NCBI GenBank assembly: GCA_963764225.1
Contig: CAVXRL010000007.1
Coordinates: forward strand, 531,510-595,509
Direction of reading: 5' to 3'
Length of the DNA stretch: 64,000 nt
From: an uncultured Actinomycetes bacterium
Lineage (GTDB): Bacteria > Actinomycetota > Thermoleophilia > UBA2241
In this document: positions 1 through 18,949 of the stretch, one piece after another
Position numbering within the stretch: the stretch's first letter is position 1
Layout: every line of letters starts with the position of its first letter
Notes under the pieces: model-generated
Database searches by the model: none
The model's input: the letters and a program-made list of their open reading frames with translations, nothing else
Told to the model about the DNA's origin: nothing
Program-made: the position numbers and the translations under genes

Positions 1-450
1 CACGGAGATCTCGTGCGTGTCCATCTCGCTGAGGTAGTCGTTCAGCCGGGCGATGTCGCCGACGTCCTGGAGCGTGCACTCGCGGACCCGGCCGGTGTCC
101 ACGTCGACGACGGCGATGCCCTCGCTGAAGTTGGTGAAGGCGACCCGCCCCGGCTCCATGAGGAAGTCGTTCTTGGGGTCGCGGCCGCAGAGCACGTACT
201 TGCTCGGCGACGAGGCGATGGCCTCCTCGACGACGTGCGGCGGGATGCGTACCATGCGCGTCTCCGCGTCGATCGTGCAGCCGCCGTCCTTGAAGATGTC
301 CCGCGCGTCCTGGGCCTCGACGAACACGCCCGTGCGCTCGAGCACCTCGAGCGAAGCGAGGTGGATGTCGTCGAGCTCCGACTCGGTGAACACGTTCACG
401 CTCAGCCCGCGGCTGCGCATGCCGCCGGCGAAGAGGTTGCGCTTCACACC
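1..450 (-). CDS. MttB-superfamily (trimethylamine/quaternary-amine:corrinoid) methyltransferase, 5' part only; gene continues past window start
   Basis: Minus-strand translation of 1-450 gives GTG-KRNLFAGGMRSRGLSVNVFTESELDDIHLASLEVLERTGVFVEAQDARDIF..., typical of the MttB-family N-terminus. GGAGG lies 6 nt before the GTG at 450. The plus-strand ORF 13..471 is its shadow. Confidence 0.6.
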
Positions 451-496: not shown

Positions 497-1894
497 TCAT
501 GCGCGCGCGCCCAGCCCGGCGTGCTCCTGGAAGCGCGCCACGCTGTTGATGGGCACCTCGAGCACCTCGGCGATGCGGAACTTGGCTTCCATCGCCCCGG
601 CGTGCGTGGGGTACGTGAGCTCCTGCACGGGGACACGGCCGAGGCCGAGGTCGCGGCGCACGTCGTGCATGGCGATGGGGTCGGCGAGATCGGTGACGGA
701 GCAACCGAGCTTGCCGGCCACGTAGGTCTTGGCGTCGCTGAGGCGCATGCCCCGGGTCATCTGCATGCGGCCCACCAGATCTCCGGTGGTCCGCATCCCG
801 CCCATGCCCGAAGCGAGCGCGTGGGTGCACGCCATGCCCAGCGGGTCACCCACGCCCACCTACAACCCGTCGCACTTGAGGATGTCGACGAGCGCGCGGG
901 AGACGCGTGACACGGCGTCCGCCGGCGGGTAGGGGCTCATCGGCACGCCGCCGACCCCCATGCCGACGTTGGGGTGCACGGGGATCTCCGCGACCGCCAT
1001 CGCCGGCTTGATGATGGCGCACGCCCGGGCCACGTTCCAGGCGATCGACTTGGTGGTGTTGACGTTGACGGCCGGCCCGAACATCGTCGCGCCGGCCTCC
1101 TGGGCGACCTCGAGCTGCGCCTTGGGCCACATGCCGGCGAGCCGCTTGCCCTTGTAGGTGAGCTCGCCGTGCATGCCCAGCACACACTCGCTCGCCATGC
1201 CGAGCTCGATGCCGATGTCGGGGTAGCGACCCTTGATGGTCTCGACGGCGGTCAGGGTCGCCAGGAAGTCGCCGTCGCCCGCGGCGCCGGCGGTGTCGAA
1301 GTCCATGCCGTCGGCGCCGGCCTCCCACATGCCCTCGGCGACGAACACCATGTCGCGGACCGCGTGGTCGATGGCCGCCACTTGCGCGTCGCGCGCCTCG
1401 TCGATCTTGCCGAGCGGCATGAGCTCCGACCAGTTCGGGATGGGCCCGTCGGGCATGGAGTAGCGGCCCAGGTCCGGCATCGCGCCGTATTGGCAGGGCG
1501 CGATGAGGTTGAGCTGGGCCACCTTCATCGCCTGTGCCTCGAAGCTCAGGATGGTCTTGATGGCCTTGTACGAGTAGTCGATGGCGAACAGCTCGAGCAT
1601 GTCCGCTCCGCGGTGGCTCTGGTAGCTGTAGAGCTCGTCCACCCGGGTGCCGGAGTCGAGGTTGCCGGAGCCGTCGAAGCTGAGGCAGACCTCGTCGCCC
1701 ATGTCCACCGCGCTGAACTTCGACTCGCTCGAGAAGATGTCCAGCAGGTGGTCGATCTCCGCCTCGGAGAGCGGAGAGGCCTTCGCGCGGCGGGCCCCGA
1801 GCGCGGAGCCTGCCACCAGGTCTTCGCGGATCTCCGCCGGAGTCATCTCGACGAGCCCACCGTCGCCGAGGCGCGTACGTACAGGTCGCTCCAC
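497..1894 (-). CDS. mtbB: Dimethylamine:corrinoid methyltransferase MtbB, copy 1, with in-frame UAG (pyrrolysine) codon at 860-862
   Basis: ORFs 860..1894 and 497..859 are in the same frame, separated only by TAG. The junction reads ...[45 protein letters not shown], matching the MtbB Pyl site (...[14 protein letters not shown]...). Conserved motifs are present across the 465 aa (RLGDG, YGAMPDLG, GADGMDFDTAGAAGDGDF, GMHGELTYKGKRLAG, FGPAVNVNTTKS, VGGVPM). Start is GTG at 1894 and the final stop is TGA. Confidence 0.85.
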
Positions 1895-1923
1895 TTCAGC
1901 ACCCCCGATGGCCGTCCTGAGCG

Positions 1924-1943
1924 ATTAGTTAGTTGTGTAACTA
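1924..1943. promoter_or_regulatory. Candidate TetR operator, inverted repeat TTAGTTA-gttgtg-TAACTAA, 30 bp upstream of mtbB1 start, in the mtbB1/tetR divergent region
   Basis: Inverted repeat seen directly in the sequence. An almost identical site lies upstream of mtbB2. Confidence 0.5.
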
Positions 1944-2110
1944 ATTGGTGAGGTAGACTACCAGACGCGATTGGGGTGTCAAGGAGACGCGGATGCCGAT
2001 CCGGCGGCCGGCGCGCGGTGGTCTGGCTCGCCGGCCGCGCAATCCGGTAAGGTGCGCATCGATGAGAAAGCGGGCCGTGCTGCGGCGCCCGCGGGAGACG
2101 CGAGGGAGGG

Positions 2111-2743
2111 GTGGCGGGCTTGACCAGGTACGAGCTTCCGTTCGACGATCCCACCCCCGACCTGTCGCCGACGGCGGCCAGGATCCTGGAGGCGGCCAGG
2201 CAGGTCCTCTCGAGGGACGGGTTACGGGGGCTCACGTTCGAGATCATCGCCCGGCAGGCGGGAGAGAACCCGGCCCTGATCCGCTACCACTTCGGCAGCA
2301 AGGCCGGGCTCCTGTCCGCGCTCGTGGACTCCGTGCTCTACCAGGAGGCCGTGGAGCTCGTCGAGCGACTCACGGACGTGCCCGCCGGCGACGAGCGGCG
2401 CGCCCGGCTGCTCGACCTGCACGAAGGGCTGCCGGAGGACACGGACGCGTACCGCAACTTCTTCGAGCTGATCCCGCACATCCTGCGCGACGAAGAGCTC
2501 CGGCCGCACCTGCGCGGCCTGTTCGACTGGTACCGCAAGCTGGACGCGTGGGCGCTCAAGGACGCCGGCGCCACGGAGCCGGCGGCGCACATCGCGCCCC
2601 TGGCGCTGCTCACGGTGGCGATCGCCGACGGCATCGCGCTGCAGAAGCTGGCCGACCCGGGCCTGGACTTCGAGCCGGCCTTCGCGCTGTGGCGCCGGCT
2701 CGTCCTCGGCCACGTGGAGTCGGGCGGCGAAGCAGCCGGCTGA
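2111..2743 (+). CDS. TetR/AcrR family transcriptional regulator
   Basis: N-terminal HTH with the TetR signature ...ILEAARQVLSRDGLRGLTFEIIARQAGENPALIRYHFGSKAGLL, followed by a helical ligand-binding domain. Divergent from mtbB1. Confidence 0.8.
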   Translation: MAGLTRYELPFDDPTPDLSPTAARILEAARQVLSRDGLRGLTFEIIARQAGENPALIRYHFGSKAGLLSALVDSVLYQEAVELVERLTDVPAGDERRARLLDLHEGLPEDTDAYRNFFELIPHILRDEELRPHLRGLFDWYRKLDAWALKDAGATEPAAHIAPLALLTVAIADGIALQKLADPGLDFEPAFALWRRLVLGHVESGGEAAG

Positions 2744-2820
2744 GCCCCCGGGGTCGGCCGCTGCTCCTGCGGCCGCCGGGGCGGCTGCTCGCGCGGCCGG
2801 CCGGGGCGGCCCCGTCCGTC

Positions 2821-4287
2821 TCAGCCGAGCTCGGCGTCGGCGGCGGCGCAGATCCTCGCCAGCTCCGCCGCCTTCCCCGCGTCGAGCGGCTCGGGCACGT
2901 AGTTCTCGAGGATGTCGAGCCCGCGCTCGCGCGCGACCTCCACGGGGTCGCGCAGGTGCGCGCCGTCCGGCCCGATCTCCTGCCCGATCGAGCGCTCGAC
3001 CGTCTCCTTCATGTGCCGGCGGGTGTGCGCCTGCCCCAAAAAGTGCCCGCCGGGCCCCACCGCGTCGATCACGTCGAGCGCCAGCTGCTCCTCGTCCAGC
3101 TCGAGGTCGCGGAACGCGCTCGCCGCGCGCCGGTAGAGGTCGTCGTCCAGCAGCAGGTGTTCGGGGGTGAACAGCTGGTACCGGTTGGTCAGCCCTATGG
3201 TGGTCATGAGTTCCGAGCCGACGATGCCGGCGAGCATGACGGTGTGCGCCGTCTCGGCCGCCGCCAGCCAGCTGCCCGGCAGGTCGTCGTCGGTGCCGGC
3301 GTACCCGGTCATCGCCGGCAGCCCGAAGTGGTGCACGAGCTCGCCGGGCAGGAACAGCCCCTTGTGGTTCAGCGGCGCCGTCGTGAGCGCCGCCGTCCGC
3401 GGGTCGGCGTGCACCGGCAGGGGGAAGAGGATCACGGGCGCCCCGGGGTGCGCCAGCTGCACGCACACCGTGGCGCTCACGAGCTCGGCGAAGCCCATGA
3501 CGAGGGCGCCGGCCTTGGTGGCCGGCGCCGTCGTCCCGTAGGTCGGCATGGTGACGAAGCACACGGGGACGCCGGCCTCGGCGAACACGAGCGCCGCCTC
3601 GATGCCGTCCCTGTCGTTGACGAGCGGCTGCACGGTGCCGATGAGGTTGCTCAGCGGGGGGCGGCGGCGCAGCCGCTCCGCCCCGCCCGCGACAACCGTC
3701 GCCATCTCGACCGCGTACCTCGCCTGGCGCTCACCCTGGACCATGCCCTGCAGGTGCTTGGCGGTGTTGTTCCAGGCCGCGTCGAGCTCGTGCAGCGTGT
3801 GCGTGTCGCCGGTGTCGGCGGCGGCCACGGTGGGCCACCAGAACTGCAGCGAGCCGAGGTAGTCGACCATGCGCGTGATCGCGGAGAGGTCGTCCTTGGT
3901 CGGCGCCCGGCGCAGCCCGGTGCGCCAGTCGACGACCTCGGTGCCGCAGCCGTTGGTGGTGTTGTACGTCTCGCCGCTGGAGAGGTCGAGGTCGAGGGTA
4001 CCGTCGCGCGACCCGAGCCGGAAGGTGCGCGGGGCTTCGGCCAGCGCTGCCGTCACGAGGTCGGGCGCGAAGCGCACGACGCCGGACGCGCGGTCCACCC
4101 GCGCACCGTGCCCGGCCAGGATGTCGAGCGCCTTGGGCGAGCCGAACCTGACCCCGGTGCGCTCGAGCACCAGCAGGACGGCCTCCTTGTAGCGGTCGAG
4201 CCTGGCGTCGTCGTAGAAGCGCACGGTGAAGTCCGAGCCGAGCGGCAGCAGCGGCTGCCGCCGGCTGAGATCGAGCTGAGAGGTCAT
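2821..4287 (-). CDS. MttB-superfamily methyltransferase (COG5598), non-pyrrolysine member with no in-frame stop; likely quaternary-amine or other methylamine:corrinoid methyltransferase
   Basis: 488 aa from MTSQLDLSRRQPLLPLGSDFTVRFYDD... to ...AADAELG. MttB-family motifs are present (GGHFLGQAHT, LFTPEHLLLDDD). The ATG overlaps the mtbB2 TGA (ATGA). The long ORF 2821..5136 in the track over-extends the N-terminus. Confidence 0.8.
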   Translation of the reverse strand: MTSQLDLSRRQPLLPLGSDFTVRFYDDARLDRYKEAVLLVLERTGVRFGSPKALDILAGHGARVDRASGVVRFAPDLVTAALAEAPRTFRLGSRDGTLDLDLSSGETYNTTNGCGTEVVDWRTGLRRAPTKDDLSAITRMVDYLGSLQFWWPTVAAADTGDTHTLHELDAAWNNTAKHLQGMVQGERQARYAVEMATVVAGGAERLRRRPPLSNLIGTVQPLVNDRDGIEAALVFAEAGVPVCFVTMPTYGTTAPATKAGALVMGFAELVSATVCVQLAHPGAPVILFPLPVHADPRTAALTTAPLNHKGLFLPGELVHHFGLPAMTGYAGTDDDLPGSWLAAAETAHTVMLAGIVGSELMTTIGLTNRYQLFTPEHLLLDDDLYRRAASAFRDLELDEEQLALDVIDAVGPGGHFLGQAHTRRHMKETVERSIGQEIGPDGAHLRDPVEVARERGLDILENYVPEPLDAGKAAELARICAAADAELG

Positions 4288-5681
4288 GCAGTCACCCCGA
4301 GCCCGGCGTTGGCCTTGAAGCGCTCCACCGAGTTGATCGGGATGTCCAGCACCTCGGCGATGTGGAACTTGGCCTCCATCGTGCCGGGGTGGTTCGGATA
4401 GGTGAGGTCCTGCACCTGCATACGCGCGAGGCCGAGGTCGCGCCTGAGGTCGTGCATGGCGATGGTGTCGCTGAGGTCGAGGACGGAACACCCGAGCTTG
4501 TCGGCGACGTACTGCTTGGCCTGCGGAAGGCGCAGGCCCCGGGTCAGTTGCATGCGAGCCACCAGATCTCCGGCGGTCCGCATCCCGCCCATGCCCGAGG
4601 CGAGCGCGTGTGACGAGGCCATCCCGAGGGGATCCCCGACCCCTACCTACAACCCGTCGATCTTGCAGATGTCGACCAGGGCTTTGGAGGCCCGGGACGT
4701 CGCGTCGACGGGCGGGTACGGGGTCATGGGCACGCCGCCGACCCCCATGCCGGCGTTCACGTGCACGGGGATCGTGGCCTCGGCGGTGACCGGCTTGATG
4801 AGCGCGCAGGAGCGCGCGGTGTTCCAGGCGAGCGACTTCGTCGTGTTCACGTTGACGGCCGGCCCGAAGATCGTGGCGCCGGCCGCCTCGCAGGCGCGGA
4901 GCTGGCCGAGCGGCCACTGGCCGGCCAGCCGCGTGCCCTCGTACTCGAGCTGTCCGTGCATGCCGAGCACGAGCTCGGAGGCCTGGCCGATCTCGATGCC
5001 GACGTCGGGATAGGCGTCGCGCAGCCGGCGGGCGACGCGCAGGGTGGCGAGCAGGTCGGCGTCGCCGGAGGCGCCGGCGGTGTCGAAGTCGAGCCCGTCC
5101 ACGCCGGCCTCGATCATGCCCTCCGCCACCAGCCACATGTCGTGCTCGAGGTGCCCGGCGGCCTCCTCCTGGGCGGCGCGCGCCTCCGCGATCTTGCCGA
5201 GCGGCATCAGCTGCGACCAGTTGGGCGCCGGGCCGTCGGGCTGCGAGTAGCGGCCCAGGTCCGGCATGGCCCCGTAGTTGAGCGGCACGACCGTCTGCTG
5301 CTGCGCGTCCTTGAGCATCTGCGTCTGGAACGGCAGCACGGTGCGCACGGCCTTGTACGAGTAGTCGTGGTGCCAGAGCTCGATCATGTCGGCGCCGTGG
5401 TGGTTCTGGTAGATGACCTGCTCGAGCACCGGTGAGGAGATGTCCGCGTTGCCGGAGCCGTCGAAGCTCAGGACGACCTCGTCGCCGTAGTCGACGGAGC
5501 TGAACCGGGCCGCGGAGCTGAAGATGTCCAGGAGGTGGGCGATCTCGTCGTCGCTCAGCGGTTCGACCTTGGCCCGCTTGACGGCCGCCTCCGAGCCGGC
5601 GTGCAGGTCGGCCTCGAGCTCCGCGCGCGTCAGCTCGGTCAGCGACCCGTCACCGAGCCGCGTCGGGATGCGGTGTGCCAT
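4284..5681 (-). CDS. mtbB: Dimethylamine:corrinoid methyltransferase MtbB, copy 2, with in-frame UAG (pyrrolysine) codon at 4647-4649
   Basis: ORF 4647..5681 ends at TAG 4647-4649 and the same frame continues as ...[41 protein letters not shown]... to TGA at 4284. About 70% identical to copy 1. RBS GGGAGG lies 5 nt before the ATG at 5681. Confidence 0.85.
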
Positions 5682-5717
5682 CGATCCTCCCGTCGTCCCC
5701 CCGAAGGGCGGTCGTCG

Positions 5718-5737
5718 TTAGTTAGTCGTATAACTAA
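5718..5737. promoter_or_regulatory. Candidate TetR operator, inverted repeat TTAGTTA-gtcgta-TAACTAA, 37 bp upstream of mtbB2 start
   Basis: Same half-sites and 6-nt spacer as the site at 1924-1943. Confidence 0.5.
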
Positions 5738-5825
5738 ACGAACCAGCCCTCGGACGATACCAGAAGCGGGCGCCGGGGTGTCAAGCGCACGGCGGCGGGA
5801 CGACGGGGGAACCGGAGGGCCGGCC

Positions 5826-6119
5826 TCAGAATTCCTCCGCCTCGGCGCCGGCCGGCGGCTCCTGCATGACGCCGTCCGCGTCCTGGCGCTCGGCGGCCAG
5901 TCGCTCGATGCGGTCGACGAGCTCGCGCGGAGCCTCTCCGCTGGAGAGCGCCTCACGGTCGACGGTCCACTGCCCCTGCTCGTCGAAGCGGCACGCCTCC
6001 CAGCCGCTCTCGCACACCTCCACGAGGCCCTCGCCGGTCAGCGGCAGCCCGAACTGCCGCCGGATGACCTCGGCGGCCTCGTCCACGCTGAGTCTGTCCT
6101 GTTCGAAATCCATCGTCAC
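5826..6119 (-). CDS. Hypothetical small acidic protein (97 aa)
   Basis: Intact ORF with GC3-rich codon usage. No recognisable domain. Confidence 0.4.
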   Translation of the reverse strand: MTMDFEQDRLSVDEAAEVIRRQFGLPLTGEGLVEVCESGWEACRFDEQGQWTVDREALSSGEAPRELVDRIERLAAERQDADGVMQEPPAGAEAEEF

Positions 6120-6245
6120 TCGTCCTCGCTCGCGGCCCGCGCGCTCAGCGGCGCGCCCTCACCCTCAGTCGTACCCGGCCGGACGGGCGCCGTGCGGGCA
6201 GGTGTGGCCGGGTGGGCGTGGCGCTGATGCCGTACCATTGACGGC

Positions 6246-7115
6246 ATGAGCGCCCACGCATCGCCCCAGTCGCTCTCCGTGACGTTCGCGGGACACTCGA
6301 CGGTGCTCCTGGACGTCGGCGGCGTGCGGCTGCTCACCGACCCGCTGCTGCGGCGGCGCGTCGGTGTGCTGATCCGGCGCGCCGCCGTCCCGGCGGCGGA
6401 GTTGCGGCGCGACCTCGACGCCGTGCTCATCTCCCACGCGCACCTCGACCACCTCGACGTCCCGTCGCTGCGCATGCTCGACCGGGACACCCCGGTCGTG
6501 GCGCCGCGCGGGGTCGGCAAGCTGCTGCGGCGCCAGGGGTTCGAGCCGGTCGAGCTCGAGGCGGGGGAAGAGGTCGAGCTCGCTGCTCGGCGGCAGGCCG
6601 GGGAGGAGGCGCATGCGCCGGTCACGGTGCGCGCCGTCCCGGCGTTCCACAGCGGCACGCGGTACCCGCTGGGCACGCCCTCGTCGGCTCTGGGCTACGT
6701 GGTCAGCGGCGCCCTGAGCGCCTACTTCGCCGGCGACACGGGCCTCTTCGACGGCATGCGGGAGCTCGGCCCCGTGGACGTCGCCGTGCTGCCGGTGGGC
6801 GGGTGGGGGCCGCGCCTGCCCGACGACCACCTCGGCCCCCTCTCGGCCGCGCGGGCGCTCCAGTTGCTGCGGCCGCGGGCCTGCGTGCCGGTGCACTGGG
6901 GCACGCTGTACCCGCCGTGGCTGCCGCCCGAGTTCAACGCGAAGTGGAGCGAGTGGCCGCGCGCGTTCGAGCGGTACGCGCGGCACCTGGCCCCCGACGT
7001 GGAGGTGCGCGTGCTGCCCCCGGGCGGCACGACGACGTTCACACCCGGGCAGACCATGCTCCCGGACGAGCCGGCGGCGCCCGTCGGCGAGCCGGCTCGG
7101 GACGGGTCCCCATGA
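6246..7115 (+). CDS. MBL-fold metallo-hydrolase
   Basis: HAHLDH metal-binding motif and a beta-lactamase-fold pattern. Confidence 0.75.
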   Translation: MSAHASPQSLSVTFAGHSTVLLDVGGVRLLTDPLLRRRVGVLIRRAAVPAAELRRDLDAVLISHAHLDHLDVPSLRMLDRDTPVVAPRGVGKLLRRQGFEPVELEAGEEVELAARRQAGEEAHAPVTVRAVPAFHSGTRYPLGTPSSALGYVVSGALSAYFAGDTGLFDGMRELGPVDVAVLPVGGWGPRLPDDHLGPLSAARALQLLRPRACVPVHWGTLYPPWLPPEFNAKWSEWPRAFERYARHLAPDVEVRVLPPGGTTTFTPGQTMLPDEPAAPVGEPARDGSP

Positions 7116-9553: not shown

Positions 9554-10561
9554 TCAATCGAACGCCCCCGCCGCCGCGCGGACGGCGGCCGTGACGATCC
9601 GGTCGGCGTTCTCCTTCTTGACGTGCACGCCGTCGTAGAACGCGTCCGGATCACCGTGGAAGCTCTCGATGCGGCTGTAGTCGAGCACCGCGATGCGGTA
9701 GTCGCGGGAGAGGAACCGCAGGAAGCGCAGCAGGCGCAGCCGGCGATCCTCCCAGGCCTGCTCGCCCATCGCCCGGATGACGTAGGGATGGGTGGGCATG
9801 ATCACCAGGACCGGCGTCACGCCGATGCTGTTGAAGAGCCCGAGCGTCATCGCGAAGTACTGCTGGTTGAGGCCCCAGGAGTCTCGCCGCTGCCCGGTGC
9901 CGTGGCGGTTGGCCAGCTGTGCGGCGACGTACTGTCGCAGGGACTGATCGAGCGTGCGGCCCTGCGACTCCAGGTAGTCGTACCAGTTGTTGGTCATCAG
10001 TCCGTTGGAGGCGAACTGGTCCGGAGACCAGAACAGCGGCAGGCCGAGCGCCACGTACGCGACCTGGTCGGGCACGGCCTCGTCGAGGAGCTTCTGCGGG
10101 AAGTAGCGCGCGAGACGCTTGTCCTGCAGCAGGCCCGGGTCGAGGACCTTCTGGTAGAAGACGGAGGGCTGGATCGCCCACAAGCAGTGGAGCTTGACCT
10201 TGGGCGCCCGCTCGAGGCAGGAGCAGGCGAGCGCCCACGCGTCGGTGGGGCGCCCGTTGGAGAAGGCCGCATTGAAGGTGCGCAGCCCCGTCTTGCGGCC
10301 CAGGAGGCTCGGGTCGAAGCGCGTGCCGCGCGACCCGCCGAACACGATGAGCTCCGGCGGGGCCTTCAGGTTGTCGATGAGGTCGAGCTTGTAGGTGCGA
10401 TCGGACGCGCGGTGGGCCGAGGCGGGCAGCGACGCCGGGGGCGTGGCGTGGGTGAGCGGGAGGTCCACGTGCCCGGCCGCGGGCGGGAACATGAGGATGA
10501 ACCCGACCGAGAGACGCGCGGCCAGCCTGCCGACCCGCCGTGAACCCCTGCGCCGGTCCAT
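9554..10561 (-). CDS. Hypothetical secreted protein (signal peptide, about 335 aa)
   Basis: Starts MDRRRGSRRVGRLAARLSVGFILMF...; hydrophobic N-terminus, no known domain. The track ORF over-extends the N-terminus. Confidence 0.55.
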   Translation of the reverse strand: MDRRRGSRRVGRLAARLSVGFILMFPPAAGHVDLPLTHATPPASLPASAHRASDRTYKLDLIDNLKAPPELIVFGGSRGTRFDPSLLGRKTGLRTFNAAFSNGRPTDAWALACSCLERAPKVKLHCLWAIQPSVFYQKVLDPGLLQDKRLARYFPQKLLDEAVPDQVAYVALGLPLFWSPDQFASNGLMTNNWYDYLESQGRTLDQSLRQYVAAQLANRHGTGQRRDSWGLNQQYFAMTLGLFNSIGVTPVLVIMPTHPYVIRAMGEQAWEDRRLRLLRFLRFLSRDYRIAVLDYSRIESFHGDPDAFYDGVHVKKENADRIVTAAVRAAAGAFD

Positions 10562-11925: not shown

Positions 11926-12001
11926 TGGAGCCGACGCGGGGAATCGAACCCCGGACCCCATCATTACGAGTGATGTGCTCTGCCAGCTGAGCTACGTCGG
12001 C
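11926..12001 (-). tRNA. tRNA-Thr (anticodon CGU)
   Basis: Cloverleaf: acceptor GCCGACG/CGTCGGC, D-arm GCTC/GAGC, anticodon stem CATCA/TGATG with loop CTCGTAA, T-arm CGGGG-TTCGATT-CCCCG, CCA encoded. Confidence 0.85.
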
Positions 12002-12207
12002 CCATGTGAAGCCTAGGCATTCTAGGTCACCTCGTCTGCGCACGCAAAACCGTGGGCGCCTTCTTCTTCATGCTCGCCGAACGCCGACTCGATGTTTTGA
12101 CGTCCGAAACACGCTAAACTGCTCCGCACTCCGTCGACGGAGCAGCGGCGACCTCGCCGCGCCGGGCCGATCCCAGCCGGGGGCCCGCAGGACGACCAAG
12201 GAGGACC

Positions 12208-12612
12208 ATGAGGAAGTCACTGCTCACGCTCACCGTTGTGATCCTGGCGCTCGCGGCCGCCGTGCTGGCCGTCGTCGGCTTCACGGCTCCGCGCACGAGC
12301 GCCACATCCTCGCTGTGCCACAGCACGACGCTGTCGATCAAGGCGCCCAGGACCGCGAAGGCCGGTACGACCGTCAAGGTGACCGGCAGGGAGGCGCGCG
12401 CGCCGGCGCACACGGTGAAGGCGACGCTGCAGTACAGGAAGGCGACGGCGACCAGGTGGAAGAACGGCGCCTCGGCCAACCTCTCGTCGAGCGGCGCCTA
12501 CTCCCTGAAGTGGAAGGCGCCGGCGAAGACCGGCAAGTACAAGCTGCGGGTGCGCGTGACGCACGTATCAGCCTCGAACAAGTCCGCGGTCAAGACGATC
12601 GCCGTCAAATAG
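12208..12612 (+). CDS. Hypothetical secreted protein (signal peptide, 134 aa)
   Basis: MRKSLLTLTVVILALAAAVLAVVG... signal peptide. Ends with a TAG stop. Confidence 0.5.
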   Translation: MRKSLLTLTVVILALAAAVLAVVGFTAPRTSATSSLCHSTTLSIKAPRTAKAGTTVKVTGREARAPAHTVKATLQYRKATATRWKNGASANLSSSGAYSLKWKAPAKTGKYKLRVRVTHVSASNKSAVKTIAVK

Positions 12613-12880
12613 GTCAAAGTCCTGCTCGCTTGCGGCCGGCGGCGCTCTCTCCGTGCTGGAGCGCCGCCGGCCTCGTTCGTGACGGGAGCCGCCGCCCGTT
12701 CTGTTCATGTGAATGCTCGCACATGGACTGATTGGCGTGCAGACGGCCCCTTTGCAGGCCCCGCAGGAGACCAGGCGCCCATTGTGGCCCTAGGGTGTCT
12801 GCCCTACCATCTACTCGTATGAAGTACCGGCGCCGAGGTGGGGGGGAACCTGCTTCCTGAGACCGGCCGAGGGGAGAACG

Positions 12881-13546
12881 GTGGAACGCGCAGCTGAGAT
12901 CCGCGTCCTGCTCGTCGACGATCACGCGATCGAGCGGCAGGGGGTACGGTCGCTGCTCGACGCGCAACCCGACATCCAGGTCGTCGCCGAGGCCGGCGAC
13001 GGTCTCGAAGCTCTTCCTCTCGTCTCCCAGTACCACCCTGACGTCGTCATCACCGAGACCATCATGCCGCGCATGAACGGGCTCGAGCTCACCGGGCAAC
13101 TGCTGCGCCGGTACCCCGACCTCAAGGTCCTCGTCCTCACCCGCAACGACCGCGAGGACTGCGTGCTGAGGCTGGTGCAGGCCGGTGCGGGGGGATACCT
13201 GCTCAAGACGGTGGACCGCGCCGACCTGCTGGCGGCGCTCCGCGCCGTCATGCGCGGGGGGCGTGTGCTGCAGCCGTCCGCGCTCGACTGCGTGATGGAG
13301 GACTACCTGCAGCGCGTGCGTGAGCCCTCCGCGCGCCGCTATGGGGTGGAGCTCACGGCCCGCGAGCGCGAGGTCCTCAAGCTCATCGCCGAGGGCAACA
13401 CCAACCAGGACATCGCCGACTTGCTGTGCCTCAGCCGCAAGACGGTGGAGACCCACCGCAGCAACATCATGGACAAGCTCAGCCTCCACAAGGTCACGGA
13501 CCTCGTCAGGTACGCCATCCGCGAGGGTCTGGTCGGGCTGGATTAG
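12881..13546 (+). CDS. NarL/LuxR-family two-component response regulator
   Basis: REC domain (VLLVDDH...ITETIMPRMNG) plus C-terminal LuxR HTH (LTAREREVLKLIAEGNTNQDIADLLCLSRKTVETHRSNIMDKL). TAG stop. Confidence 0.8.
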   Translation: MERAAEIRVLLVDDHAIERQGVRSLLDAQPDIQVVAEAGDGLEALPLVSQYHPDVVITETIMPRMNGLELTGQLLRRYPDLKVLVLTRNDREDCVLRLVQAGAGGYLLKTVDRADLLAALRAVMRGGRVLQPSALDCVMEDYLQRVREPSARRYGVELTAREREVLKLIAEGNTNQDIADLLCLSRKTVETHRSNIMDKLSLHKVTDLVRYAIREGLVGLD

Positions 13547-13720
13547 GTCGTCCCGTCGCGGCGGGGAGGAGTGCTTCGGGCTGCCGGGGAGCCGATCCTG
13601 GATGGAGTGGCGGCGCCTCGTTCGCCCGCATTTGTGACACGATTCACCCAGAGGGATTATTATTGACGCAGTGAACGAAGGCTTGGGAGAGAAGAGAGTG
13701 GCGCTCACCTGGGTGACGGC

Positions 13721-14596
13721 ATGACCGAGGTCGGCATCGTCGCGGTCGTCAACCACGGGTTGCCGGAGCTGCGCACTGCGCTCCGGACCATCCGCGAGAC
13801 CGCTCCGCCCGAGGCGCAGCTGGCCGTGATCGCCCTCGACCTGGGGGACCATGAGGGCACCTACCTGCTGCGCCAGTACCTGCGCGGGCGCATCCACGCG
13901 GTGCAGTTCGACCACCGGCAGGACCACGGCTGCCACTGCGGCCTGGACCGCTCCGCACGCCTGGTGCGCGGCGACTACGTGGCGCGCGTCGACGACACGC
14001 TCCAGTTGAAGCCGGGCTGGGCAGAGAAGGCGGTCGCGGCGCTGGAGGCGGACCCGGGCATCGGCTGTCTCTCCCTCGTCCCCCCGAGCGACTATCAGCG
14101 AGGCCGCGGACGGCCGCGGACGGTGAACGTGGAGCCGATCGAGGTCGACCACCTCGACATGCGCTGCTTCGTGGTCCGGCGCGAGCTCCTGGCGCGGATC
14201 GGGTGCGGGGTCGCGGCCGGCCGGGAGGACGGCTGCGGGTTCCAGGAGGCGGTGCGCGCTCAGGGGCTCCGCCTCGCCTTCCTGCCGGGGCAGGCAAGCC
14301 CGCTCCGCAGCGTGGAGGTGCCGGCGGAGTACGACATCTGGCCGCTCGAAGAGGAGTTGCCGCCTCACGAAGGAGCGAGCGGCGCGCTCCAGCGTCTCGA
14401 GCAGGCGTATCAGCTCGGTGACGACGTGCTGCTCACGTGTCTCTCGTGCGGCGGCACGGAGCTCGAGACCATCGCCGCCCGCATCCGCTTCTGCGAGCGG
14501 CATCAGGTCGCCACCGGCTTCTGGTACGAGCTGCGCTGCCCCGAGTGCGGCGAGCTCCTCTACAAGGACGACTACCAGTTCCGGTGCCCCGACTGA
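13721..14596 (+). CDS. Glycosyltransferase family 2-like protein with C-terminal Cys-pair (zinc-ribbon-like) region
   Basis: N-terminus resembles a GT2 fold. C-terminus has CLSCGG...CERH and CPECG...CPD motifs. Confidence 0.45.
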   Translation: MTEVGIVAVVNHGLPELRTALRTIRETAPPEAQLAVIALDLGDHEGTYLLRQYLRGRIHAVQFDHRQDHGCHCGLDRSARLVRGDYVARVDDTLQLKPGWAEKAVAALEADPGIGCLSLVPPSDYQRGRGRPRTVNVEPIEVDHLDMRCFVVRRELLARIGCGVAAGREDGCGFQEAVRAQGLRLAFLPGQASPLRSVEVPAEYDIWPLEEELPPHEGASGALQRLEQAYQLGDDVLLTCLSCGGTELETIAARIRFCERHQVATGFWYELRCPECGELLYKDDYQFRCPD

Positions 14597-14687
14597 CCTC
14601 CTCCGCGATCAGCCGAGCGCTCCGCTACTTCGCCGCTTGATCTCGACACCAAGGCTCAGAGCCTGGCATGCCACGACGTGGGCCTCC

Positions 14688-15161
14688 TCAGAACGGCTTG
14701 GCGCTCATCGCCCACACGGTGACCGTCCAGGCCACGACGGCAATGCCGAGCGCCAGGGAGGCCGCAGCCGCCAGCCGACGGCTTCGGCGCCGCGCCGACA
14801 GCCAAATCAGCACCGTCCCCGCGATCAGCAGCAAGAAGCCGCCATCGGACGTGACGTAGCCGAGTACGACCCAGCCGGGATCCGAAGCGCCGTCTCCGAA
14901 CTCGCGCGAGCGGACCAGTTCGGCGCCGACGCGCATGACCACGTAGGAGGGAAGCGTCGCGAGCAGCAGGACGCGGAAGGCGAGGCGCCGCGACCAGACC
15001 GCCACGTCCGGACCGGAGAGAACCGCGATGTACGCCGCGGCCGCGGCTGCGCCGATGAGGGCGGCGGCGCCCGCTACGTGCAGGAGCAGAGGCAGGGCCA
15101 GATCGCCCGGCCGTCCGGCGGCGACCAGGGCGAAGAGGGCCGAGAGGATATCGGGCATCAT
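14688..15161 (-). CDS. Hypothetical integral membrane protein
   Basis: Several hydrophobic helices. Start MMPDILSALFAL overlaps the upstream stop (ATGA). Confidence 0.5.
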   Translation of the reverse strand: MMPDILSALFALVAAGRPGDLALPLLLHVAGAAALIGAAAAAAYIAVLSGPDVAVWSRRLAFRVLLLATLPSYVVMRVGAELVRSREFGDGASDPGWVVLGYVTSDGGFLLLIAGTVLIWLSARRRSRRLAAAASLALGIAVVAWTVTVWAMSAKPF

Positions 15162-15649
15162 GCGCCCGGCCTCCAGATCATGAGGGCGAACTCGGCGACG
15201 GTCGCTGCAGCCGCGCCAAGCTCCAGCCAAAGGAGGCCTCTGACATGCGGTACCGGTAGTCCCGTGTCGGCGGCTTTGCCCGTCATGCGCCTGAGACGCG
15301 AGATCCCCATGTCACTGAGGCCTCCGATCACCAGCCACAGCAGGATGGCAGCGATGACCCAGGTGTCCAGGAGCGAATAGGCGTCGCGCGTGAGCACCAG
15401 CCAGAGGCCGAGCACGAGCGTTGCCGCCACCCCCAAGCGAAGCACGGCGGCGGACACACGGACGAGGCCAGCGAGCGCGGGCATCGTCGCCGAGTCGCCG
15501 GACGTGATGGCTGCAGCGATCACCAATGCCGTCACCGGTGCGCCGACAGCGAACGCGGCGAGGACGTGCAGCGAAAGGAGCCAGCCGGCGCCGCTCACGG
15601 CGGTCAAGATCATGGATGCGATCCCTGGCGTGTCGACACGTTCGACCAC
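15158..15649 (-). CDS. Hypothetical integral membrane protein
   Basis: Four or more predicted transmembrane helices. Confidence 0.5.
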   Translation of the reverse strand: MVERVDTPGIASMILTAVSGAGWLLSLHVLAAFAVGAPVTALVIAAAITSGDSATMPALAGLVRVSAAVLRLGVAATLVLGLWLVLTRDAYSLLDTWVIAAILLWLVIGGLSDMGISRLRRMTGKAADTGLPVPHVRGLLWLELGAAAATVAEFALMIWRPGA

Positions 15650-15744
15650 CTTTCTCTGCGTGGGGTCTTCCCTCTGTGCAGTGAGCAGGTGCGCCGTGCG
15701 TCGACACGCGCGCGGGTCGAGAAACGAGAGGGGGAAGAGGAAGC

Positions 15745-15820
15745 TGGAGCCCGGTCGCGGATTCGAACCGCGGACCCCCTCCTTACCATGGAGGTGCTCT
15801 GCCAGCTGAGCTAACCGGGC
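15745..15820 (-). tRNA. tRNA-Thr (anticodon GGU)
   Basis: Acceptor GCCCGGT/ACCGGGC, anticodon stem CCTCC/GGAGG with loop ATGGTAA, T-loop TTCGAAT, CCA encoded. Confidence 0.85.
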
Positions 15821-15821
15821 T

Positions 15822-15906
15822 TGGTGGGGGAGCTAGGATTTGAACCTAGGTAGGCTGCGCCAACGGATTTACAGTCCGCCCCCTTTAACCACTCGGGCAC
15901 TCCCCC
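15822..15906 (-). tRNA. tRNA-Tyr (anticodon GUA), long variable arm
   Basis: GGGGGAG...CGGAC-TGTAAAT-CCGTT...long variable arm...CTAGG-TTCAAAT-CCTAG-CTCCCCC-A-CCA. Lies 1 nt from tRNA-Thr. Confidence 0.85.
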
Positions 15907-16000
15907 GGGAGCCGTGGAATCGTAGCCCAAAGCCGGAGCGCTTTCAACCGCGGTGGAGGCGGTCAGCGGGGAGGTCGTCCGAGGCCTGAGAAGAAGACAG

Positions 16001-16029
16001 CCGGGGTCGTCAGGGGATGACGACCCCGG
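16001..16029. terminator. Perfect 12-bp stem hairpin CCGGGGTCGTCA-ggggA-TGACGACCCCGG; T-rich tract follows on the minus strand (possible minus-strand intrinsic terminator)
   Basis: Seen directly. Lies in the 486-bp non-coding gap between tRNA-Tyr and tRNA-Met. Confidence 0.35.
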
Positions 16030-16392
16030 CCGGAAAGGTTGTGCCGCCCGGCCAGGGGAAGCGGGCGGGCACAGTGACTCGCAGTGTCATCATGCCGCCG
16101 TCGGCTGGAGGGGGATCCAGGTCCGGGGCGCTTGTGATGACAAGCGCATTCTACCCGAAATACGGACACACGCAACCGCTTCGTGGACGAATCGCTCCGG
16201 GCGGTTTGTACCCTTTGTCCTGCTTTTTCCGCCATGCGGACAGCGGCTCGCGGAGGCGCGGATCGAGACCCGGACCGAGGCGCGATCGAGGCGCGGATCA
16301 AGGCGCCGATGGAGGCGCAGGATGACCTCTGCGCGTCTCCTTGGCGCGGATTGAGCACCCTTTGGGCCTGTGGTACCGTAAGCATCCGCCGT

Positions 16393-16469
16393 GGCGGCGT
16401 AGCTCAGCTGGTCAGAGCAGCGGAATCATAATCCGCGTGTCGTAGGTTCGAGTCCTACCGCCGCTACCA
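16393..16469 (+). tRNA. tRNA-Met (anticodon CAU); elongator Met or possibly Ile2 precursor
   Basis: GGCGGCG-TA-GCTC...GAGC-A-GCGGA-ATCATAA-TCCGC...GTAGG-TTCGAGT-CCTAC-CGCCGCT-A-CCA. Confidence 0.85.
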
Positions 16470-16724: not shown

Positions 16725-17094
16725 CACCTCTTGACGCTCAAAGGCGGATCGCCTCTCCGCAGCCCGGGGGCCACCCAACTGCTTTCCGGGTTCCCGGGTC
16801 CTGCCCACGGAAACACCCCGCCGTGGGGCGCCCGGACGGGAAGGCGCTCGTCCTCGGGCGCGATGACGGCGGACGGACGACGACGGCGTCCCCTCATCGT
16901 GAACTCCGACGGTAGCGGCCTCTAGTGTGATGCGAGAGGCGGTGAGGAGGGAGCCGCAGCGGTTGCCGGAGTGAAGTGCCAGCCGTCCAGAGGGGGCCTC
17001 GTTTGCCACAGCACTTCAACGGGAAAGTAACTTTTCGTCCGAGATACCTCACCGTCGTCGTGTGGCGGAACGCGAAGCTGAGAGGGGTCCCACC

Positions 17095-17397
17095 ATGAAG
17101 AAGACCTTGATCGTGATGTCGGTCGTAGCCTTGGTCCTGGCCGTCATGGCCGTGCCGGTACTGGCGGCGCCAGGCGGCGCGCCGGCGGCGCACGGCGTCG
17201 ACGGCAAGACTTTCGGCGCGGCCGTGAGCGGGCTTGCTCAGAGCTCGCCCGGCGCCGTAGCCGCGCACGTGAGCGGCGGCAACTCCGGCGGCATGCCCGC
17301 CGCGCACGGACTCTCCGGCGCTGACTTCGGCGCCGCAGTCAGCGGCCTCGCGCAGAGCGCCCCGGGAGCCGTTGCAGCTCACGTCTCCGGCAAGTAG
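17095..17397 (+). CDS. Small secreted repeat protein (two copies of about 30 aa: FGAAVSGLAQS-PGAVAAHVSG)
   Basis: Signal peptide MKKTLIVMSVVALVLAVMAVPVLAAPG, then an internal tandem repeat. Confidence 0.5.
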   Translation: MKKTLIVMSVVALVLAVMAVPVLAAPGGAPAAHGVDGKTFGAAVSGLAQSSPGAVAAHVSGGNSGGMPAAHGLSGADFGAAVSGLAQSAPGAVAAHVSGK

Positions 17398-17522
17398 AAG
17401 CTGACGCGATCAGCGTAACGTCCACGGGGGGGCGGTCCCGGTCTTGGCCGGGACCGCCCCCCCGTCACTCGTGCTCCTGCTCGTGCCGCGGGTCCAGCTA
17501 CCGCGGCGCCGTCTCAACGATC

Positions 17523-18506
17523 TCAGTGAGCCGGTTGCGGCATGATCGCGCGGTCGCTGAGGGTCTTCATGAAGGCGACGAGCGCCAGCTCCTCGCGCTT
17601 CGTCAGGCCGAGGTCACCGAGCTCGTCCGTGTTGACGGTCTCGGGCACTTCAGGCGCCGCCCAGCCTGCTCCCGCGACGTCGCGCGTGTTGTAGAAGTGC
17701 ACGATGTCGTAGAGCGTCGCGAAGTAGCCATTGTGGCCGTAGGGGCGGTTCCTGGCGACGTTGCGCAGCGTCGGCACCTTGAACTTGCCCATCTCGGCCA
17801 TCCAGACGGCGTCGTCGTACCCTGCCGCGTAGAGGAAGCCGCCGAGACCGAGGTCCACGTCGCTGCTCCCAGTCAGCGCTGCGATCGTGGGGTTCGCCGG
17901 GAGGCCGAGGTTGTCGTAGGTGTGGTCGGTGAACAGCGCTTTGCCCGCGGCGATGCCGGTCGAGTCCCTCGAGGGCTCGCTCAGGTGGCACAGGTTGCAC
18001 TTGGCCTTGCCGTTGAAGAGCTTGAGCCCCAGCTTCTGCTGCGCCGTGAGCGCGTCCCTCTGGCCCGCCATATACGAATCGAAGCGCGAGTTGAAGCGGT
18101 TGACGGAACTGGACGACTCGTAGGCGGCGATGGCGAGGGCCATGTCGTCGTAGGCTTGATCGACATCAGTCCAGTCCGTGTGCGGGAAGACCTGGAGGAA
18201 GAGGTCGGCGTAGTCGCTGGCGCCGATGTCCCGGATGACCTCGGCCTTGCTCGCGTTGTGCATCTCGACGGGGTTCAGGAAGGGACCTTGGGCCTGCTCG
18301 GCGAGCGGCGATCCGAGCGTCCAGCCGGTGGCGCGGCCGTCCCAGAACATGCCGCCGATCCAGAGGCCCTCCGCTTCGTCGAAGTACAAAATCGGGCTCC
18401 AGGCGGTGTAGGCCCAGGACGGACAGGATTGAGTAGCCCGTTCGGACAACGCCCCGCCGGGTCGGCCTGCCGCCGGCCCGGCGGGCGGCAACGGCCCGAA
18501 CCCCAC
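17523..18506 (-). CDS. Cytochrome c peroxidase (CCP/MauG) family protein; only the second haem motif (CNLCH) is in frame, so the 5' region is possibly frameshifted
   Basis: ...FNGKAKCNLCHLSEP...PTLRNVARNRPYGHNGYFATLYDIVHFYN matches the CCP C-terminal haem domain. Confidence 0.6.
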   Translation of the reverse strand: MGFGPLPPAGPAAGRPGGALSERATQSCPSWAYTAWSPILYFDEAEGLWIGGMFWDGRATGWTLGSPLAEQAQGPFLNPVEMHNASKAEVIRDIGASDYADLFLQVFPHTDWTDVDQAYDDMALAIAAYESSSSVNRFNSRFDSYMAGQRDALTAQQKLGLKLFNGKAKCNLCHLSEPSRDSTGIAAGKALFTDHTYDNLGLPANPTIAALTGSSDVDLGLGGFLYAAGYDDAVWMAEMGKFKVPTLRNVARNRPYGHNGYFATLYDIVHFYNTRDVAGAGWAAPEVPETVNTDELGDLGLTKREELALVAFMKTLSDRAIMPQPAH

Positions 18507-18550
18507 GAGCCCCTCCGCTCGGGGTAGGAACGGTCCGTGAGAGGAGGGCC

Positions 18551-18826
18551 ATGATGAGTGATCTGCTGTCCCTGAACGAGGTGCGCAGCCTCCAGCGTCC
18601 GGCGCTGTTCATCGACTTCGGAGAGAAGCTGCTGTACCACGACGAGCGGTTGTTCGACCTGACGCCCGAAGCCCCCGGCAGGCCTCCCGACTACTCACCG
18701 GTCATGCTGCCCGCGCAGGTGCTCGACTTGGGGGTCGGCATCGAGTTCGGTTGGCGCCACCTGGCGGAGTGCGACTGCGACCACTGCCGCTCCCTGCGCG
18801 CCCGCCGCGGGCGGCACGCCGCCTGA
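18551..18826 (+). CDS. Hypothetical protein (91 aa) with CDCDHC motif
   Basis: Strong RBS GAGGAGGG lies 4 nt before ATGATG. GC3-rich codon usage. Confidence 0.45.
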   Translation: MMSDLLSLNEVRSLQRPALFIDFGEKLLYHDERLFDLTPEAPGRPPDYSPVMLPAQVLDLGVGIEFGWRHLAECDCDHCRSLRARRGRHAA

Positions 18827-18949
18827 CGACCGGGGAGTCGCTTTCCGGCAGCGCGGCGTGTTCACGGCGAGGAATCGAGGAAGCGGCAACAGGGAGGGCG
18901 CCCTGGGGCGCCCTTTCGCTTCTCTCGCGGCCACGGCGGTCGCGTCGAT

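Follow-up and report, generated by a model that had tools for sequence, protein, structure and literature searches.

Two copies of an AT-rich palindrome, TTAGTTA-N6-TAACTAA, precede the dimethylamine methyltransferase genes mtbB1 and mtbB2 of an uncultured Actinomycetes bacterium (Thermoleophilia, UBA2241), and comparison across related loci suggests that both copies are operators of the TetR-family protein encoded next to them, which would control both mtbB operons; we assign this reading a probability of roughly 0.8. The window, that is, the whole stretch of DNA that was analysed, comprises 64,000 nucleotides (64 kb; positions 531,510 to 595,509 of contig CAVXRL010000007.1, assembly GCA_963764225.1). 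The conservation of the palindrome, its positional specificity, its co-occurrence with tetR and a successful blind prediction argue strongly for the operator reading.

Two palindromes in a locus of two operons

The locus consists of two operons, A headed by mtbB2 and B headed by mtbB1, with tetR located between them and divergent from operon B; every gene of the locus except tetR (plus strand) is carried by the minus strand. The 64-kb window contains exactly two perfect matches to TTAGTTA-N6-TAACTAA, 3.8 kb apart. These sites and the genes adjoining them, the mtbB genes being translated with read-through of an in-frame TAG (pyrrolysine, Pyl), are the following.

1925..1944: putative operator O_B, half-sites TTAGTTA and TAACTAA around the spacer GTTGTG (TTAGTTAGTTGTGTAACTAA), in the tetR/mtbB1 divergent region; exact match
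5718..5737: putative operator O_A, the same half-sites around the spacer GTCGTA (TTAGTTAGTCGTATAACTAA), upstream of mtbB2; exact match
2111..2743, plus strand: tetR, TetR-family regulator gene, the proposed repressor; PF00440 (TetR_N) and PF17940 (TetR_C_31)
497..1894, minus strand: mtbB1, dimethylamine methyltransferase; in-frame TAG at 860-862; PF09505, E 1e-117
4284..5681, minus strand: mtbB2, dimethylamine methyltransferase; in-frame TAG at 4647-4649; PF09505, E 6e-111

The palindrome is 20 bp long, AT-rich and embedded in a window with a G+C content of ~70%. No match was obtained in 100 dinucleotide-preserving shuffles of the window, and a third copy was not found in the window itself at up to 3 mismatches (0 expected). 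The half-site TTAGTTA occurs four times in the window, each time within one of the two palindromes, compared with an expectation of 0.10. The start codon of mtbB1 (GTG at 1894) is 30 nt, and that of mtbB2 (ATG at 5681) 36 nt, from the respective palindrome. An earlier note on this DNA had described near-identical inverted repeats before both genes, and the two exact matches agree with this description; its coordinates for the second repeat and its 30 bp for mtbB1 are right, whereas the first repeat had been placed 1 nt too low, at 1924-1943, and the distance for mtbB2 given as 37 nt. Its statement that the first palindrome lies in a divergent region with a TetR-family gene (PF00440) is likewise borne out.

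Conservation of the palindrome in related loci

Scanning for MtbB2 with one genome per species yielded 37 loci, nearly all in metagenome-assembled genomes (MAGs) of uncultured Thermoleophilia (Actinomycetota) from soil, peat and lakes, and only ~10-20 kb of DNA around each locus was inspected. Together with the first 8 kb of the window, these related loci formed a search set of 581 kb. The motif scan, which the earlier note had proposed genome-wide as a check, was run on this set and on the 64-kb window, and the matches were strictly positional: the 47 exact N6 sites in the 581 kb fall at two positions per syntenic locus, the one exception being a third site in locus L022, and there was no off-target match at ≤2 mismatches. 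Sites of one position, termed class A, precede the mtbB2 orthologue and were recorded in 29 loci, two of which were added later; those of the other, class B, are in the tetR-divergent intergenic region (25 loci, always adjoining tetR). In the same 581 kb, no match at ≤1 mismatch was obtained with the spacings N0, N1, N3-5, N7-9, N11 and N12, and no exact one with N10; the 11 exact matches at N2 are either nested in N6 sites or located in locus L020. Among the at least 120 exact matches to the pattern listed for metagenome contigs, almost all were in AT-rich contigs (GC 0.17-0.53), and the four listed matches with >55% GC were accompanied by no homologue of any locus protein.

The mean pairwise identity of the aligned sites was as follows.

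Half-sites (14 positions): class A 0.96, class B 0.98
Spacer: class A 0.61, class B 0.69
Flanks (14 nt): class A 0.37-0.40, class B 0.40-0.44

Judged from these alignments, strong selection acts on the sequence of the palindrome itself, at both positions and across ~30 species-level MAGs. The layout of 7-bp arms around a 6-bp spacer is also that of tyrosine-recombinase core sites, and the asymmetric spacers GTTGTG and GTCGTA have the same orientation on the plus strand (direct), so that the two sites might be recombination sites flanking the 3.8-kb tetR-mttB-mtbB2 cassette or, mtbB1 and mtbB2 being paralogous at 65% identity, relics of the duplication of these genes. We regard either origin as scarcely credible. 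No gene for a recombinase was found in the locus, the palindrome keeps a conserved position relative to the predicted −10 element and the start codon, and the spacer consensus differs between the two sites (TACGAC/TATGAG vs TGTAAC/TGTGAC), which would prevent strand exchange; furthermore, the duplication is old (65% protein identity, diverged flanks), and half-sites that are nevertheless invariant in ~30 species point to selection.

Some of the related loci deserve separate mention. The third exact operator in L022, at 44-63, precedes an extra pair of mtbB1-like and mttB genes, which would bring three operator-controlled promoters into the regulon of that MAG. In L001, a mtbB3-mtbB2-mttB-tetR segment is repeated with near-identical sequence around the operators (9949 and 17549, 7.6 kb apart), reflecting either a recent tandem duplication or an assembly artefact. 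L035 has mtbB frames that look fragmented and a degenerate operator (TTAGTTATCCGACTAAGCTTAA); this locus and L016 come from MAGs labelled Deltaproteobacteria but are of the Thermoleophilia type (85% MtbB2 identity), and both MAGs are possibly mis-binned.

The palindrome stays with tetR

The gene tetR is syntenic in all loci long enough to reach it, and wherever it is present, with TetR proteins 51-100% identical, a class B site lies no more than ~250 nt from its start. In all 26 of these loci the palindrome is near the regulator's own gene and in its divergent region, as is common for operators of TetR-family regulators (TFRs). No site was found in loci that have other mtbB paralogues and lack tetR (L026, L027, L030, L031, L033 and L037, Bacillota included). 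In L001, L002, L007, L008, L020, L025 and L036, mtbB1 is absent and the class B site precedes mttB, and in L024 the palindrome is kept 64 nt from the tetR start with no downstream gene, only a convergent open reading frame (ORF). The site therefore stays with tetR where the downstream gene has been changed or lost, which ties it to tetR and not to a type of target gene. The same distribution was predicted for two loci fetched later (TetR P0115, 69% identity, and P0120, 67% identity), and each contained exactly two exact sites, one tetR-divergent and one upstream of the second mtbB.

Since the inspected DNA comprises ~10-20 kb per locus and the site is assigned to TetR by co-localisation, the palindrome might instead be the operator of a regulator encoded elsewhere, with the adjacent TetR binding something else. 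We consider this improbable, because tetR is the sole regulator gene conserved in the locus, the association holds in 26/26 tetR loci across the whole range of TetR divergence and survives loss or replacement of the downstream gene, and the tetR-divergent region has no other conserved block that could be TetR's own operator.

The earlier note had proposed a single repressor for both mtbB operons. This proposal gains strong support from the conservation, the co-occurrence with tetR and the repressor-like position described below, but needs refinement in one respect: O_B belongs to tetR and the divergent promoter, not to mtbB as such, as it precedes mttB directly in at least seven MAGs and is alone with tetR in one.

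Predicted promoters and the position of the palindrome

Candidate promoter elements were recognized upstream of both palindromes.

1955..1982, minus strand: predicted mtbB1 promoter, −35 TTGACA at 1982-1977, 16-nt spacer, −10 TAGTCT at 1960-1955
5754..5784, minus strand: predicted mtbB2 promoter, −35 TTGACA at 5784-5779, 19-nt spacer, −10 TATCGT at 5759-5754
1954..1959, plus strand: predicted tetR −10 TAGACT, overlapping the mtbB1 −10 on the opposite strand

As read from the sequence, the two mtbB promoters of the window share TTGACA(cccc) and a TGG directly before the −10 (TGGTAnnnT), and the operator starts 10 nt (mtbB1) or 16 nt (mtbB2) after the −10. In class B loci, TTGACA and TAnnnT are kept in 23-24 of 25 cases, with the −10 ending 9-10 nt before the palindrome; in class A loci, TTGACA and TA(T/C)(C/A/G)GT are conserved and the −10 ends 12-17 nt before it. 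If these promoters are right, the palindromes would cover roughly +4 to +30 of the transcripts, the classical position for a repressor.

Given such promoters, both sites would also be transcribed in the mtbB leaders, where the palindrome could form a 7-bp A/U hairpin acting on mRNA stability, on translation or through an RNA-binding protein, and TetR would be irrelevant. This hairpin is present in the minimum free energy folds of both leaders, and a second, G+C-rich hairpin follows, pairing with the Shine-Dalgarno sequence in some lineages. We nonetheless judge action at the RNA level to be very improbable. In a RNAalifold alignment of 25 class A leaders, compensatory changes occurred in 0/7 pairs, and the rare variants break pairs (A-C, G-A, C-A); an invariant stem amid drifting surroundings is the signature of sequence-specific and not of structure-specific recognition. 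The folding z-scores are weak (−1.65 and −1.9), and an Rfam search at E up to 1 detected the two PYLIS (pyrrolysine insertion sequence) elements of the mtbB genes and no match in either leader. Moreover, the site in L024 persists with tetR without a downstream gene in that orientation, and mtbB paralogues without tetR also lack the palindrome.

The mtbB2 leader (5682-5717, minus strand) contains a G+C-rich segment (GACCGCCC...GGGAGGAUC) that is able to pair with the Shine-Dalgarno sequence, at a weak z-score (−1.65). At this position of the leader, where the alignment is too gappy for covariation, other MAGs carry a G+C-rich segment of different sequence that can likewise form a hairpin.

Operator binding by TetR, the preferred reading, has a further likely consequence, namely that tetR is autoregulated through O_B. 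Autoregulation is implied by the retention of O_B next to tetR where the downstream gene has been changed or lost, and the arrangement of the −10 elements is consistent with it. The class B −10 is a heptamer, TAnnnTA, in 23/25 loci, while the seventh base is an A in 0/29 class A loci; a TAnnnT can be read from either strand of this heptamer, which can thus provide two −10 elements back to back, one for mtbB1 and one for tetR. Between the operator and tetR there is no further conserved block, and in several loci the operator-to-tetR start distance is only 53-80 nt. L024 has lost the forward −35 as well as the T of the forward −10 and has retained the reverse TAGACT. The −35 of tetR may then be located within the O_B spacer (class B TGTAAC or TGTGAC; reverse complement GTTACA or GTCACA), and TetR bound to O_B would shut both promoters, those of mtbB1 and tetR.

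The TetR-family protein

Assignment of the protein to the TetR family rests on PF00440 (E 6e-11, 42.3 bits vs a cut-off of 24, residues 25-71) and on PF17940 (TetR_C_31, 32.4 bits vs a cut-off of 27.4). An AlphaFold2 model has 9 helices at a pLDDT (predicted local distance difference test) of 74.7, and all top Foldseek matches in the PDB are TetR-family proteins (template modelling scores 0.6-0.7). The true start is probably the TTG at 2120 and not the annotated GTG at 2111, since homologues begin with M-x-R-Y-E-L-P and the GGGAGG at 2103-2108 is better spaced for the TTG. The segment comprising the helix-turn-helix (HTH) and its recognition helix (ENPALIRYHFGSKAGL) shows no or almost no variation among 38 homologues with identities as low as 65%, which fits the invariant half-sites. 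Covariation between HTH residues of TetR and operator bases was looked for, and as both are essentially invariant, this comparison had no power.

The best PDB profile match is a TetR-family protein of Saccharomonospora viridis (E 4e-10, residues 19-178), and the same entries are among the top Foldseek matches. Like the window protein, it is actinobacterial, and the alignment includes the conserved W-Y of helix 7; it shares only ~22% identity, and no published function, operator or physiological ligand was found for it. The protein has been deposited as 4ICH and, together with ligands, as 4KWA (choline), 4NEL (N,N-dimethylmethanamine, or trimethylamine) and 4JNN (benzamidine); the first two ligands may be taken, by analogy and as a lead only, to point to a small methylated amine as effector.

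Two known TetR-family regulators were tried as possible orthologues and rejected. For BetI, the NCBIfam models gave 35.4 bits vs 201.3 (TIGR03384) and 30.3 vs 118 (NF001978), matching in the HTH only, and the neighbouring genes are mtbB/mttB and not betA/betB. For AmtR, only the HTH aligns (E 2e-5, residues 21-96), the half-site is TTAGTTA and not tttCTAT, and agreement is limited to the 7-N6-7 geometry.

A model for shared control of the two operons

We propose that an effector-free TetR dimer would bind each TTAGTTA-N6-TAACTAA site and, situated just past the −10 of a predicted strong and conserved promoter, would block binding or promoter escape of RNA polymerase at two operons: A, with mtbB2 and a non-Pyl mttB, and B, with mtbB1 and a Pyl-type mttB, to which relatives add genes for a corrinoid protein and an APC-family permease and a further non-Pyl mttB. 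As O_B also overlaps the putative divergent tetR promoter, the repressor would limit its own synthesis, as in tetR/tetA. Binding of a small methylated amine to the C-terminal domain would then release the repressor, with trimethylamine (TMA), dimethylamine (DMA) or a quaternary amine (choline or glycine betaine, for example) as candidate effectors. The promoters, the binding of TetR, repression, autoregulation and the effector are all inferred. The presence of non-Pyl MttB-family genes in the operons makes a quaternary amine as plausible an effector as the methylamine that the earlier note had predicted. A more specific version, in which TetR is a dedicated sensor of TMA/DMA, or of a quaternary-amine precursor, that switches on the whole Pyl-dependent demethylation system in non-methanogenic Thermoleophilia of soil and peat, is a tentative proposal to which we would give somewhat less than even odds.

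Several observations weigh against shared control by TetR, or against its simplest form. A generic scan of 1800-6300 for sigma-70 promoters and terminators called none, so that the promoter assignment is drawn from cross-species conservation alone, and the −35/−10 spacers are of atypical length (class B, 16 nt; class A, 18-19 nt). Among the syntenic relatives, L020 (Stordalen isolate bog_752; TetR 63% identical; sites at 9952-9975 and 13636-13655) is the most divergent, and its mtbB2 site has N2 and not N6 spacing (TTAGTTA-TG-TAACTAA); most tetR-proximal sites in other MAGs hold a nested N2 palindrome (TTAGTTA-TG-TAAC-TAACTAA). A single dimer on 7-N6-7 may therefore be too simple a picture of the binding register and stoichiometry. 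As to the effector, 4KWA and 4NEL are structural-genomics entries at ~22% identity, and their ligands are maybe not physiological. Other sites, or another regulator of the same motif, are possible beyond the inspected locus regions.

Relation to known systems and significance

The arrangement resembles that of Tn10 TetR/tetO, in which the repressor gene is also divergent from its target, a palindromic operator lies over the promoter region and release by a small ligand is to be expected; here as there, the operator probably controls both the target and the repressor gene. In contrast to Tn10, a second operator 3.8 kb away would serve a second operon, and the targets are catabolic corrinoid methyltransferases instead of an efflux pump. 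The operator is 7-N6-7, the spacing of tetO is shorter, and there is no sequence relationship beyond the family HTH. The AmtR box of Corynebacterium glutamicum, tttCTAT-N6-AtAGa(t/a)A, in which the 6-bp spacing is essential (PMC2723105), provides a precedent for a TetR-family dimer on a 7-N6-7 palindrome. AmtR is likewise an actinobacterial TetR-family protein acting through an AT-rich palindrome of this geometry on genes of nitrogen-compound metabolism; it differs in being a global regulator that is released by the GlnK protein and not by a small ligand, that is not autoregulated and that recognizes another half-site. BetI is comparable as a TetR-family repressor of methylated-amine (choline, glycine betaine) metabolism, and its C-terminal domain type, PF13977, has a weak match in the window TetR (20.9 bits, below the 27-bit cut-off).

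Actinobacteriota of Stordalen Mire, including the genus Bog-752, express Pyl-encoding mttB and mtbB, and in thawing permafrost peat the Actinobacteriota with this locus compete with methylotrophic methanogens for methylamines (PMC10805028). The genes and lineage are the same as here, and the isolate bog_752 of L020 matches the genus Bog-752, so operons of this type are transcribed under natural conditions; the study addresses presence and expression only and proposes no regulator or operator. In the literature, we found no regulator or operator for bacterial pyrrolysine-dependent methylamine methyltransferase genes, nor a TetR regulator of mttB/mtbB, and the protein described here is the first plausible regulator of such genes. 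As a mechanism, local control by a TetR repressor is very common, a textbook case with little conceptual surprise, and the interest lies in the genes controlled. The repressor-operator pair offers a testable handle on when such organisms consume TMA or DMA and a motif for annotating regulons in MAGs, and it may yield a TetR-type sensor of small methylated amines. Should the TMA/DMA sensor proposal be true, this would be the first defined transcriptional regulator and operator for bacterial pyrrolysine-enzyme genes, and would provide a biosensor part of the TetR type, ready for use with TMA or DMA.

Gene content and neighbourhood of the locus

The remaining features of the two operons in the window are listed below.

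1..447, minus strand: 5′ part of mttB (trimethylamine methyltransferase type), which is truncated at the window edge and is the second gene of operon B; TIGR02369, E 9e-50, residues 16-147
2821..4287, minus strand: non-Pyl MttB-family methyltransferase, second gene of operon A; PF06253, E 1e-55, without internal stop
763-862, minus strand: PYLIS element in mtbB1; Rfam RF02509 (PYLIS_2), 62.6 bits vs a gathering score of 36
4550-4649, minus strand: PYLIS element in mtbB2; Rfam RF02509 (PYLIS_2), 67.2 bits vs a gathering score of 36

The paralogues mtbB1 and mtbB2 have read-through frames of 465 codons each, with a single TAG at codon 345, and both have the hallmarks of MtbB: a Dimeth_Pyl domain, a UAG at the conserved position and a downstream PYLIS. 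Both PYLIS_2 elements begin at the in-frame TAG, and the model, derived from archaeal mtbB genes, here recognizes elements in an actinobacterial MAG. With ARAGORN, tRNA-Pyl was detected neither in the window nor in 23 related loci (locus regions only). The description of both transcription units as Pyl-methyltransferase operons, given in the earlier note, holds for the two mtbB genes with their TAG and PYLIS and has to be widened, as the operons also hold non-Pyl MttB-family genes.

In operon A, the stop codon of mtbB2 overlaps the start of the non-Pyl mttB-family gene (ATGA at 4284-4287), which suggests translational coupling of the Pyl enzyme with its non-Pyl MttB paralogue. Operon B consists of mtbB1 and mttB, followed by genes beyond the window edge. 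In the related locus L019, the mttB orthologue is full-length and of the Pyl type, its in-frame TAG falling at the Pyl position; it is followed by genes for a B12-binding (corrinoid) protein and an APC-family permease and by a further non-Pyl mttB. In L019, the corrinoid and permease parts are found in one ORF of 739 codons (16744-18963), in which a B12-binding cap domain leads over an Arg-rich, nonsense-looking stretch into the APC-family permease; this is probably a fusion of two genes by a frameshift or a MAG assembly error.

Upstream of mtbB2, the window contains a tRNA cluster (Thr-CGT, Thr-GGT, Tyr and Met, 11926-16469). The same tRNAs flank the L003 and L013 loci, indicating a conserved chromosomal neighbourhood and speaking against the idea that the cassette was inserted recently by horizontal transfer.

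A third mtbB paralogue, with ~60% identity to both window copies, is present in many MAGs, directly upstream of and divergent from mtbB2 in L001-L029 (for example L001 8371-9405, minus strand) and also in L027, L032 and L034. This paralogue has no palindrome by its own start and is preceded by another conserved upstream block (for example GCGGAGG(C/T)CCGC...GCGGTCGAA). At the corresponding position, the window has an unrelated ORF of 97 aa (5826-6119).

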